From the NCBI RefSeq assembly GCF_054482595.1, contig NZ_CM137008.1: a stretch of 64,000 bases of DNA, one strand, 5' to 3'. The position numbers were made by a program, and so were the translations under genes. Positions within the stretch are counted from its first letter, which is position 1; each line of letters opens with the position of its first letter. Of the stretch, positions 13,084 through 20,454 are shown in pieces. A model generated the notes under the pieces. It was not told the DNA's origin, did not search any database, and worked only from the letters and a program-made list of their open reading frames with translations.

Positions 13084-13424
13084 TAGCTGTATTATTTTAT
13101 TTTCTTGACGAGAGGAATACAAAATGATACGGCTATTTCATCCACCAAGAAAAAATTATTTTCTTATCTTACTCCTCACATCCCCCTTACACATTAAATA
13201 TACTTAATTTACATTTTAGTTTTTTTTAATTCATTCATGAAATAGCACTTCATGCAAATAGATTAGGCATTTTTTGTTTAAACGACCTAAAATAACAACA
13301 ATTCAATACGCCACATAAATATATTCACACCCGTGATAATTCACCCCTATTACATCCTCCAAAAACTTTGAGTAATATCCGCTCGCAATATTAATTTCAT
13401 ATAATTTTTGTAAGGATGCATGTA

Positions 13425-14021
13425 ATGAAAAAAGCACTTCTCGCAGCCGCTCTGGTTATGGCTTCTGGTTCCGCCCTGGCTGTAGATGGTGGTCATATCG
13501 ACTTTAACGGTATGGTACAGTCCGGTACCTGTAAAGTGGGTGTGGTAGATACTGGTATGCACAGCGTTACCACTGATGGCGTGGTTACCCTGGATACTGC
13601 GAATGTTACTGATACTTTTGCTGAAGTTAGCGCAACTGCTGTCGGTTTACTGCCGAAAGAGTTCATGATTTCTGTTGAGTGTGATCCAGGTGCTCCGAAG
13701 AATGCTGAGTTGACTATGGGTTCTGCAAGCTACGCGAACACCAGCGGTACCCTGAATAACAATATGAACATCACTGTTAACGGTATTGCACCGGCTCAGA
13801 ACGTAAACATTGCAGTTCATAACATGAAAAACAAAGCTGGCGCTGCTGAAATTAAGCAGGTCCATATGAACAACTCTTCTGAAGTTCAGGAACTGACATT
13901 AGACGCAGAAGGTAAAGGCCAGTACGTATTTAACGCATCTTACGTTAAAGCACCGAACAGCCCGGCTGTAACTGCTGGTCATGTAACCACTAACGCGCTG
14001 TACACCGTTGCTTATAAGTAA
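13425..14021 (+). CDS. yadN: Fimbrial major-subunit-like protein (yad chaperone-usher operon)
   Basis: Signal peptide MKKALLAAALVMASGSALA, fimbrial subunit C-terminus (YTVAYK); start set at the ATG 8 nt after the aagga SD; AT-rich upstream region. Confidence 0.8.
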   Translation: MKKALLAAALVMASGSALAVDGGHIDFNGMVQSGTCKVGVVDTGMHSVTTDGVVTLDTANVTDTFAEVSATAVGLLPKEFMISVECDPGAPKNAELTMGSASYANTSGTLNNNMNITVNGIAPAQNVNIAVHNMKNKAGAAEIKQVHMNNSSEVQELTLDAEGKGQYVFNASYVKAPNSPAVTAGHVTTNALYTVAYK

Positions 14022-14107
14022 TTGATGGTGTGTTGAGCATAAGGTTTGCCAGCAGGCAGACCTTATTTTCTCTAATTTAATCTTTTTACAGACAGCAAGG
14101 AGTGCTT

Positions 14108-14833
14108 ATGTTTCCCTTGGTTAAAAAAACGGTTAGTGCATTATTTGTAAGTACTCTGTTAGCCAGTGCGCCAGCATTTGCTGACATTATTATTTCCGGA
14201 ACACGTATCATTTATAACGCTGATAAAAAAGATGTTAACGTTCGCCTGGAAAATAAAGGGAATCGTCCCTTACTGATTCAAAACTGGTTGGATACGGGCG
14301 ATGACAATGCCGATCCCAGCCAGATCAAAGTGCCGTTTACCGCGACCCCGCCCGTTTCACGCGTAGAGCCAAAACGCGGTCAAACCGTAAAAGTGATGTA
14401 CACCGGTGCAACAGCCCTGCCGAAAGACCGTGAAAGCGTCTACTGGTTTAACGTGCTGGAAGTGCCGCCTAAGCCGAAAGATGCTGAGGCTGACAAAAAC
14501 TTGTTACAGCTGGCTTTCCGTACGCGCATCAAACTCTTTTATCGCCCGAGCGGTTTACAGGGAGAACCGGCTGAAGCACCGGCGAAAATCACCTGGAAAT
14601 TAAACAACGCTCAGTTACAGGCAAATAACCCAACGCCATATTACGTGTCCTTTAATGAGGTCAAGCTGGAAAGCGGCGGCAAAACCTACAACGTCAATTC
14701 CAGCATGGTCGCGCCGTTCAGCCAGGCAAGCTTTGGCGTAACCGGTCTGCCAGGAAGCGTTTCATCCGGAAAAGTGGTCTTTAAAGCGATCAACGACTTT
14801 GGCGGCAACATTGATGGTTCCGCAACATTCTAA
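14108..14833 (+). CDS. yadV: Periplasmic fimbrial chaperone (PapD-like)
   Basis: Signal peptide plus PapD-like chaperone fold sequence; AAGGAG 5 nt upstream of ATG 14108 (ORF-track start 14102 is GTG in frame). Also called ecpD in older annotation. Confidence 0.85.
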   Translation: MFPLVKKTVSALFVSTLLASAPAFADIIISGTRIIYNADKKDVNVRLENKGNRPLLIQNWLDTGDDNADPSQIKVPFTATPPVSRVEPKRGQTVKVMYTGATALPKDRESVYWFNVLEVPPKPKDAEADKNLLQLAFRTRIKLFYRPSGLQGEPAEAPAKITWKLNNAQLQANNPTPYYVSFNEVKLESGGKTYNVNSSMVAPFSQASFGVTGLPGSVSSGKVVFKAINDFGGNIDGSATF

Positions 14834-14874
14834 AAAATAAACGGATTCTTTTTAACATCGCCAGGAATGCAACC

Positions 14875-18683: not shown

Positions 18684-19274
18684 ATGCTATGCAGGCATCA
18701 TAAATTTGTACGTTTTTTGGGGCTGGCAACAGCCCTCATTACGCCTTTTGCCTATGCTGGCCAGGATGTGGATCTCACGGCGCAGATTGTGGCCAGCACC
18801 TGTCAGGTGGAAGTCAGTAATAATGGCGTTGTCGATCTCGGCACAGTGACGCTGGACTATTTTGCTGACAATGTGACCCCAACGACGGATTACGCGGGTG
18901 GCAAAACGTTTAATGTTAATGTGGTCTCTTGCGATAACATTCAAACGACACAGTCGCAAATGAAATTAGATTTTCAGCCGCAGGCGGGAGCGCTTGCACA
19001 GGTGAATAATCAAATTTTTAGTAATGAATACGAACAGCAGGCTACCGGGGCGAAAAACGTCGGCATTGTGATATTTTCGGCCCAACCGAATCAGCAGACA
19101 TTTAACGTGCGAGGAACAGATGGTTCCTCAGCAGCAATTTATTCGGTCGCGCCTGGCAATGCTGTTCCCTCAACCTGGACCTTTTATTCCCGTATGCAGC
19201 GGGTGAATAATGCCCTTCCTCCTGAATCGGGAATGGTGAGAAGCCAGGTTATTGTTAACGTATCTTACGAATAA
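18684..19274 (+). CDS. yadK: Fimbrial subunit-like protein
   Basis: 196 aa, signal peptide, C-terminal VNVSYE. Confidence 0.8.
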   Translation: MLCRHHKFVRFLGLATALITPFAYAGQDVDLTAQIVASTCQVEVSNNGVVDLGTVTLDYFADNVTPTTDYAGGKTFNVNVVSCDNIQTTQSQMKLDFQPQAGALAQVNNQIFSNEYEQQATGAKNVGIVIFSAQPNQQTFNVRGTDGSSAAIYSVAPGNAVPSTWTFYSRMQRVNNALPPESGMVRSQVIVNVSYE

Positions 19275-19285
19275 TAAGGATAATT

Positions 19286-20398
19286 ATGCAAAGGAAAGGC
19301 AATAAACTGTTGATTCAGTTATGCAGTGCGATACTGCTATTTTTTACCACATCCTGGTATGCATTGGCGAATGAATGTTATATAGAGAGAAATGCTGAAG
19401 GGCCTTATGATATGGTGATAAACCGAAAGCCTTTCAGTATACAGTCAGCGATGGTCACAGTCCCGGAAGAAATAGGCTTCGCGACCTGGGATTCTCATAT
19501 TGATCTTCGGGGCGATAAGATTGGTTGTAAATCCTTAGGTAGTAACACAAGCTCAGTGCATTTTCTTAATACTGCTGATGCCAGTCTCTTATCAACCTAT
19601 ACTACCAGCCATGGCGATGCTTTATTGAAAACAACCGTTCCCGGTATTGTTTATTCAGTAGAATTAGTATGTACAAGTTGTGGAGCCGCGGAGGAGCTTG
19701 ATTTGTATCTTCCTGCACAAAGTGGTGCAGATAATCATACAGATAACGCCAGCTCAAAGTGGGCCTATGAGTATAGTGACGAGAGCTGGTATTTACGATT
19801 TCGTTTTTTCTGGACCCCGGAATTTAAACCTCAAAATGGGGTTTCAGAAGGAACTGCGATACCAGGTAAAATAGCTTCCTGGTATATAGGCAATAATGAT
19901 CAACCATGGATAAATTTTTTCGTTGATACAAGCTCCGTTCATTTTTACGTTGACGAACCGACCTGTGCAACAGTTGCCCTCGCACAAGATCAGGGCAACG
20001 TCAGTGGCAACCAGGTAACGCTTGGGAACAGTTATGTTTCAGAAGTGAAAAATGGGCTTACGCGGGAAATCCCTTTTTCTATCCGTGCTGAATACTGTTA
20101 TGCCAGTAAAATAACGGTTAAATTGAAAGCGGCAAATAAACCCAGCGACGCCACACTAGTAGGTAAAACGACTGGCTCTGCTTCAGGCGTGGCTGTAAAA
20201 GTAAATTCAACTTATGACAATAGCAAAGTATTGTTAAAAGCAGATGGTAGCAACACGGTTGACTATAACTTCGCCGTCTGGTCAAACAACCTGCTGCTTT
20301 TACCTTTTACGGCGCAGCTGGTACCGGATGGCAGTGGTGCTGCTGTCGGTGTTGGAACCTTCTCTGGTAACGCGACCTTCTCCTTTACCTACGAATAA
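19286..20398 (+). CDS. yadC: Fimbrial tip adhesin-like protein (two-domain)
   Basis: 370 aa, signal peptide, C-terminal pilin domain ending FSFTYE; larger N-terminal domain consistent with an adhesin. Confidence 0.8.
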   Translation: MQRKGNKLLIQLCSAILLFFTTSWYALANECYIERNAEGPYDMVINRKPFSIQSAMVTVPEEIGFATWDSHIDLRGDKIGCKSLGSNTSSVHFLNTADASLLSTYTTSHGDALLKTTVPGIVYSVELVCTSCGAAEELDLYLPAQSGADNHTDNASSKWAYEYSDESWYLRFRFFWTPEFKPQNGVSEGTAIPGKIASWYIGNNDQPWINFFVDTSSVHFYVDEPTCATVALAQDQGNVSGNQVTLGNSYVSEVKNGLTREIPFSIRAEYCYASKITVKLKAANKPSDATLVGKTTGSASGVAVKVNSTYDNSKVLLKADGSNTVDYNFAVWSNNLLLLPFTAQLVPDGSGAAVGVGTFSGNATFSFTYE

Positions 20399-20422
20399 GT
20401 AAAACGTCATTCCTTCCTCATC

Positions 20423-20454
20423 GCACCAGAGTTCTGCTCTGGTGCGAACATTTT
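20423..20454 (+). terminator. Hairpin terminator after the yad operon
   Basis: gcaccagag-ttctg-ctctggtgc perfect 9-bp stem followed by gaacatttt. Confidence 0.6.

Follow-up and report, generated by a model that had tools for sequence, protein, structure and literature searches.

A predicted Yad/Sta-group chaperone-usher fimbria in an O157:H7-type allelic form at the folK-panB site of Escherichia coli

The stretch of DNA analysed here (64,000 nucleotides of contig NZ_CM137008.1, assembly GCF_054482595.1; hereafter called the window) corresponds to the fhuC–ftsZ segment of the Escherichia coli chromosome and carries a seven-gene chaperone-usher fimbrial operon between folK and panB. We assign a probability of about 0.9 to the reading that the operon, in an O157:H7-type allelic form at the conserved folK-panB site, specifies a classical chaperone-usher fimbria that is functional and belongs to the Yad/Sta group. 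The operon is of an already known and annotated type, whose close relative in O157 has been the subject of experiments. Over the query region the sequence matches that of E. coli XH990 (NZ_CP019359.1, isolated from urine) at 100% identity, and the Prokaryotic Genome Annotation Pipeline (PGAP) lists all seven genes of that strain's operon as intact.

The initial annotation had proposed seven co-oriented genes encoding, in order, a major subunit, a chaperone, an usher, three minor subunits and a two-domain tip adhesin. This content and order are borne out, far beyond chance, by the open reading frames (ORFs), by Pfam and NCBIfam matches and by the PGAP annotation of XH990. All seven genes lie on the plus strand. 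The major pilin N (YadN/StaA-like; 13425-14021, 198 amino acids) has a signal peptide, a Cys36-Cys86 pair and a C-terminus ending in YTVAYK, and is followed by a periplasmic PapD-like chaperone V (YadV/EcpD/StaB-like; 14108-14833, 241 amino acids) and an outer-membrane usher E (HtrE/StaC-like; 14875-17475, 866 amino acids, with a TTG start). The minor pilins M (YadM/StaD-like; 17489-18037, 182 amino acids), L (YadL/StaE-like; 18052-18663, 203 amino acids) and K (YadK-like; 18684-19274, 196 amino acids) precede the tip adhesin C (19286-20398, 370 amino acids), which comprises a signal peptide (residues 1-28), a lectin domain (approximately 29-218) and a pilin domain (approximately 219-370). With folK (12604-13083) on the 5ʹ side and panB (20534-21325) on the 3ʹ side, the order pcnB-folK-operon-panB-panC is that of K-12. 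ORFs on the minus strand within the operon reach at most 106 amino acids, are all nested in coding sequence and are taken as chance occurrences.

Pfam E-values across the operon components range from 1e-8 to 5e-157. The chaperone carries both expected domains, PapD_N (PF00345, 2e-45) and PapD_C (PF02753, 1e-19), and the usher is covered over its full length by PapC_N (PF13954), Usher (PF00577, 5e-157) and PapC_C (PF13953). The Fimbrial family (PF00419) matches the N, M, K and C subunits; the fifth, the L pilin, is matched by the NCBIfam StaE/YadL models instead. A charged or basic n-region, a hydrophobic core and an AXA-type cleavage site were found in all seven products by a simple heuristic (not SignalP), which agrees with the signal peptides previously ascribed to the subunits. 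All five subunits also end in a beta-strand with a penultimate tyrosine. The description of these ends as ‘C-terminal donor-strand motifs’ was a misnomer, as the donor strand is the N-terminal extension and the C-terminal motif is part of the acceptor, chaperone-binding strand. Such an extension precedes the conserved cysteine pair in the four pilins, whereas in the adhesin the signal peptide runs straight into the N-terminal domain. A lectin domain joined to a pilin domain, with no N-terminal donor strand, fits a subunit located at the fimbrial tip.

No frameshifts or truncations were found relative to the closest alleles, and the gene lengths match those alleles. Moreover, the ratio of nonsynonymous to synonymous substitution rates (dN/dS) is 0.00-0.22 in all seven genes when compared with two different alleles, even where the synonymous rate (dS) is saturated. 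Because the ratios are this low throughout, we conclude that all seven genes are under purifying selection and are not decaying, and the earlier impression of an intact operon is upheld.

Close relatives of the operon reside in O157:H7 and O145:H28 strains, at approximately 94% nucleotide identity. Amino acid identities to O157:H7 EC4115 and to K-12, respectively, are 100% and 44% (YadN) for the major pilin, 99% and 63% (YadV) for the chaperone, 98.6% and approximately 61% (60.7%; HtrE) for the usher, 92% and 52% for the M pilin, 66% and 42% for the L pilin, 96% and 41% for the K pilin, and 84% and 27% (YadC) for the adhesin. The flanking FolK and PanB proteins, in contrast, are 92-98% identical to those of K-12 (92.5% for FolK). 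Sequence comparison thus assigns the operon to the ‘yad/locus 2’ type of O157:H7, at the yad position. The O157:H7 operon shares the site, the seven genes, the proximal promoter region and both hairpins described below, and it differs mainly in the L pilin, the adhesin, the M pilin, the lectin-domain coding region (59-83% nucleotide identity) and the 3ʹ half of folK. When expressed, the O157 operon produces thin, flexible fimbriae (PMC7098969), and the gamma-4 clade label of this type rests on the literature (PMC7098969, PMC11287998). Among the 5426 complete E. coli genomes, 727 gave megablast matches to the sequence type and 419 (approximately 8%) matched over its full length; what the remaining genomes carry at the site is too different to match.

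Family models are split between Yad and Sta. The usher scored 1563 bits with NF007337 (PRK09828; cutoff 830, next family 503 bits), which groups it with HtrE and StaC; the chaperone scored 420 bits with NF007398 (cutoff 285) and the K pilin 274 bits with NF011794 (cutoff 132). The labels returned by the tool are generic, and we take NF007337 to be the HtrE equivalog, PRK09926, which the chaperone passes, to be the YadV equivalog, and the model passed by the K pilin to be the YadK equivalog. For the N, M and L pilins, the best NCBIfam matches are StaA, StaD and StaE, all below cutoff, and in this respect the operon departs from Salmonella enterica Sta (staABCDEFG). However, in a tree with no outgroup the usher is no closer to HtrE (approximately 60%) than to Salmonella ushers (65-71%), which are, if anything, slightly nearer. 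We assume these Salmonella ushers, which the protein search returned, to be StaC.

Whether such an operon is called Yad depends on the definition that is applied. Wurpel 2013 defined Yad by usher phylogeny and locus, such that all operons at the locus are Yad and Sta is the Salmonella counterpart at the identical locus (PMC3559732). A 2026 survey scores a genome as Yad-positive at no less than 80% identity and coverage to HtrE of strain EC958, and reports 0% positives for phylogroup E and 5% for phylogroup D (PMC13245861). The K-12 HtrE protein can serve as a proxy for that of EC958, since the survey scores MG1655 as Yad-positive, and the 60.7% identity of the window usher to this proxy lies below the threshold. 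The operon would be scored ‘Yad-negative’ in the survey and Yad in the earlier classification. Yad nomenclature and prevalence surveys therefore treat divergent folK-panB cassettes inconsistently. The label ‘yad’ chosen in the initial annotation holds for the locus, the gene order and the usher and chaperone models, but it does not extend to the proteins at large, which are 27-63% identical to K-12 Yad, nor to the lectin domain, which is unrelated in sequence.

The tip adhesin is the component that departs furthest from K-12. It passes none of the curated NCBIfam models (best StkG, 63 bits against a cutoff of 329), and it reaches only 27 bits with NF007269, which we take to be the YadC-family model and whose cutoff is 473 bits. 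BLASTP against K-12 YadC, a protein of 412 amino acids, aligned the pilin domain alone (residues 201-369, 26% identity) and found nothing in the lectin domain, which contains four invariant cysteines. A sequence search of the PDB gave no match at E<=1. An AlphaFold2 model was confident (predicted local distance difference test 87.8; predicted template modelling score 0.74) when built from 20 homologues, 38-94% identical, from E. coli, E. albertii, E. fergusonii, Salmonella and Enterobacter. The best Foldseek matches of this model are the two-domain tip adhesins FimH, LpfD, CupB6, CfaE, FocH and PapG, and its receptor-binding domain resembles those of Abp1D, GafD/F17G, MrkD, AtfE, UclD and LpfD. 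The model and its matches thus corroborate the two-domain architecture that had been proposed. Binding of D-xylose and annexin A2, serum induction and H-NS repression have been shown only for the Yad type of K-12 and extraintestinal pathogenic E. coli (ExPEC). Judged by the sequence comparisons above, the ligands reported for YadC cannot be assumed for this adhesin.

Sliding-identity comparisons delimit the divergent segment. Other E. coli start to diverge within the last ~100 bp of folK (~12980), and similarity returns directly after the terminal hairpin (~20470), with the conserved panB promoter region. In Escherichia, the folK-panB site is occupied by at least four usher lineages: that of K-12 HtrE, with an SW4848 subtype that is 86% identical; that of the window, O157 and E. 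albertii, in which the E. albertii usher is 90% identical to the window usher; the ws5-3 type, whose usher shares 81% identity with that of the window; and the type of E. coli GCA_036484775.1, whose usher shares 69% identity with that of the window and is accompanied by an adhesin of 408 amino acids. The GCA_036484775.1 cassette spans 5549-12641 of the locus sequence, also at the folK-panB site; no chaperone gene is listed among its gene calls at 6145-7001, yet a chaperone-like start sequence is present there. This one site accommodates several fimbrial cassettes that differ deeply in sequence, exclude one another and have lectin domains unrelated to each other.

Differences from the O157 operon are concentrated in blocks. 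Nucleotide identity is 95-100% across 13240-17520, falls to 53-79% in the L pilin gene (18090-18680; dS 1.1), and is 59-83% in the part of the adhesin gene that encodes the lectin domain (19385-20029). The L pilin gene looks like a block replaced by recombination. For the adhesin, dS is 1.83 in the lectin domain and 0.19 in the pilin domain, with a lectin-domain dN/dS of 0.12. Recent positive selection was considered as the source of the lectin-domain divergence and was rejected, since a saturated dS together with a low dN/dS is better explained by recombinational import of an old allele. The L-K-C block recurs unchanged in 13 complete genomes, whose sources are humans, poultry, pigs and a duck. 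In addition, the 3ʹ half of folK (12750-13083) and panB exhibit unusually high dS between E. coli strains (0.33-0.55): folK has a dS of 0.33 relative to O157, and panB is 82-93% identical at the nucleotide level, with a dS of 0.41-0.55. This divergence suggests linked ancient polymorphism around the cassette, and elevated dS in flanking genes is the expectation under balancing selection.

Taken jointly, these observations lead us to favour, by a modest degree, a long-standing cassette locus with trans-species polymorphism. Its lineages, at least four in number and with ushers 59-81% identical, would be exchanged by recombination with breakpoints in folK and just upstream of the panB promoter. 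The ‘Yad-negative’ strains of phylogroups D and E would carry the cassette described here, with a lectin domain like those of F17G, MrkD and Abp1D.

The region upstream of the operon (13084-13424, plus strand) is a putative regulatory region. It spans 341 bp at 29.0% guanine plus cytosine (GC), which substantiates the AT-rich region of ~340 bp noted previously, and it has the lowest GC content of the window (mean 51.5%, standard deviation 4.4%; a value this low is reached by only 0.03% of 341-bp windows). Next in AT-richness, at ~48190-48730 (341-bp windows of 33% GC or less), comes the pdhR-aroP intergenic region. The operon itself has 47% GC and its flanks 54%, so both an AT-rich promoter region and a reduced GC content, the compositional marks of an H-NS target, are present. 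AT-richness is retained upstream of every cassette lineage (24-29% GC across 280-369 bp), but one lineage's sequence cannot be aligned with another's, and the K-12/ExPEC promoter shows 30-40% identity. In contrast, identity to O157 is 94-100% in the proximal part (13240-13424). In the distal part, a 61-bp segment (~13100-13160) is absent from O157:H7 and lies between 10-bp direct repeats TTATTTTCTT, which is consistent with a repeat-mediated deletion or insertion. This segment holds two unsupported small ORFs of 27 and 30 amino acids, and the small ORFs of the AT-rich region as a whole (22-44 amino acids, both strands) likewise lack support. A Shine-Dalgarno sequence, AAGGA, precedes the ATG at 13425, and two weak sigma-70-like matches lie at 13175-13204 and 13264-13293. 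The sigma-70 scan as a whole was uninformative, with 12 weak matches against 11.4 expected from shuffled sequence. A scan of 12900-20700 with Rfam at E<=1 returned no RNA family.

The initial annotation considered the operon H-NS-silenced and cryptic. Silencing of the H-NS type is a reasonable inference from composition. Repression of yad by H-NS has been demonstrated in K-12, CFT073 and EC958 (PMC13245861); for the O157-type operon we found no H-NS data in the literature, and one study of it makes no mention of H-NS (PMC11287998). According to the same study, the native promoter of the O157 homologue is active with ethanolamine, that operon forms three transcriptional units, and it aids gut colonization (PMC11287998); induction by acid stress is reported in work cited by another (PMC7098969). 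Because the homologue is natively expressed and reportedly stress-induced, the label ‘cryptic’ is questionable. The AT-richness on which the claim was based is real, but the promoter cannot be aligned with the one that was tested, and a high-affinity H-NS motif is missing from it at up to two mismatches.

Two hairpins on the plus strand may shape the transcripts. The first (14039-14066), overlooked in the initial annotation, is a terminator-like structure that separates the chaperone gene from the major pilin gene; its 12-bp stem and GNRA-size loop are followed by UUUUCUCU. A counterpart with a U-run is found in all other cassette types, including K-12, where the sequence is different. The second, whose presence after the operon had been pointed out before, lies at 20421-20447 and forms 12 pairs followed by GAACAUUUUCC, with a predicted folding free energy of -21.4 kcal/mol and z = -6.2 relative to shuffled sequences. 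It is probably a weak terminator or a 3ʹ-end stabilizer. Counterparts of different sequence occur at the same position in K-12, SW4848 and the third cassette type (that of GCA_036484775.1). Both hairpins thus recur at the same positions in every other operon version examined, with different sequences in K-12. Because position is preserved across such divergent versions, the hairpins are likely to be functional, the first through attenuation or stabilization that raises the ratio of pilin to assembly machinery and the second in 3ʹ-end formation. The three transcriptional units of the O157 operon (PMC11287998) fit these proposed roles.

Established chaperone-usher biology offers a mechanism into which these parts would fall. 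Transcription would start in the 341-bp AT-rich region, a plausible target of H-NS-type repression that environmental cues would relieve, and the terminator-like hairpin that follows the major pilin gene probably keeps pilin abundant relative to the assembly machinery. The seven products would be exported by the Sec pathway, and the PapD-like chaperone would cap each subunit by donor-strand complementation. The usher would then begin assembly with the two-domain adhesin, which is expected at the tip because it has no donor strand of its own, and would add the minor pilins and lastly the major-pilin rod by donor-strand exchange. The locus as a whole would behave as a replaceable cassette, in which the L pilin and the lectin domain have been exchanged for alleles that diverged long ago. 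If so, the receptor specificity of this adhesin would therefore be unlike that of K-12 YadC and of the O157 adhesin.

Several observations weigh against a functional, H-NS-regulated fimbria of this kind. The signal peptides are predicted by heuristic only, and the promoter-like matches, which are weak (9/12), are not enriched over shuffled sequence. No match to the high-affinity H-NS nucleation motif (TCGATAAATT-like) was found within two mismatches in 13084-13424, although such a motif is not required for H-NS binding and its absence is weak evidence. H-NS repression has been demonstrated for the K-12/ExPEC type of promoter, with which this upstream region cannot be aligned. The hairpin at 20421-20447 has no proper U-run, was not called by the terminator scan and may not terminate. 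Experiments in which fimbriae were formed concern the 94%-identical O157 operon, which is another allele, and may carry over to the window by analogy. Finally, the structural matches of the modelled adhesin are only 8-15% identical and have diverse ligands, hence they would not allow its receptor to be predicted.

The operon might instead be a plain orthologue of the K-12/ExPEC Yad operon (yadN-yadV(ecpD)-htrE-yadMLKC), with the same adhesin specificity, and be H-NS-silenced and cryptic as in K-12. The two share the site, the gene order, similar gene lengths, an AT-rich upstream region, both hairpins and the usher and chaperone models that we take as HtrE and YadV equivalogs. The classification by locus also puts every such operon in Yad (PMC3559732). 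Against this stand proteins that are 27-63% identical to K-12 beside flanking genes at 92-98%, an usher as distant from HtrE (60%) as from the Salmonella ushers (65-71%), a shorter adhesin whose lectin domain has no detectable similarity to YadC (27 of the 473 bits needed with NF007269), and a type that megablast finds in only 727 of 5426 genomes. The promoter regions cannot be aligned, and the O157 homologue is natively expressed (PMC11287998). The identity, usher and lectin-domain comparisons already largely refute this explanation, and we regard it as very improbable. Even less credible is an operon that merely looks intact and is a silent relic, never expressed and drifting toward pseudogenes. 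Many E. coli chaperone-usher operons are indeed silent in the laboratory, and the weak promoter-like matches and low GC content of the operon agree with this proposal. However, a relic is difficult to reconcile with dN/dS of 0.00-0.22 in seven of seven genes despite saturated dS relative to the ws5-3 allele, with the lack of stop codons and frameshifts, or with identical copies in the 13 human, poultry, pig and duck genomes. In addition, expression, fimbria formation and an effect on colonization are on record for the O157 homologue (PMC7098969, PMC11287998).

Least likely of all is that the AT-rich region acts as a phase-variation switch, by fim-like inversion or pap-like Dam/Lrp control, rather than as a target of simple silencing. 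Many fimbrial operons are phase-variable, and a perfect 9-nt inverted repeat, AAAAATTAT/ATAATTTTT, is present at 13151-13159 and 13401-13409, 241 nt apart. The repeat consists of A and T only within DNA that is 71% AT, however, and is likely to be a chance occurrence. No site-specific recombinase gene or PapI/PapB-like regulator gene lies within or beside the operon, and GATC sites are missing from 13084-13424 and from the entire interval between 12893 and 13682. This candidate was rejected, and a functional fimbria remains our preferred explanation.

Two other features of the window can be recorded. A 69-amino-acid ORF on the minus strand (22284-22493) adjoins rpnC (22562-23434), and its C-terminal half repeats the C-terminal tail of RpnC (…TLAQWFEE…LSKGMSREDVAE…LPL.EIDKLIN). 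PGAP lists this ORF as a partial pseudogene that is missing its N-terminus, and it is apparently left over from a second Rpn-family paralogue. The window also holds the ppdD-gspE(hofB)-hofC type IV pilin gene cluster at ~52729-55756.

These findings affect how results are transferred among operons at this site. Because the promoter and the receptor-binding domain found here are not homologous in sequence to those that were tested, conclusions drawn for K-12/ExPEC Yad on H-NS repression, on D-xylose and annexin A2 binding and on serum induction should not be carried over to this operon. Typing of ‘Yad’ by usher identity misses the cassette, whereas typing by position lumps together several different adhesins. 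For allelic cassette exchange and the diversification of fimbrial tip adhesins, the locus could offer a compact example. If the folK-panB site is indeed a polymorphic cassette locus, the allele in the window would bind a receptor other than those of K-12 YadC and the O157 adhesin.

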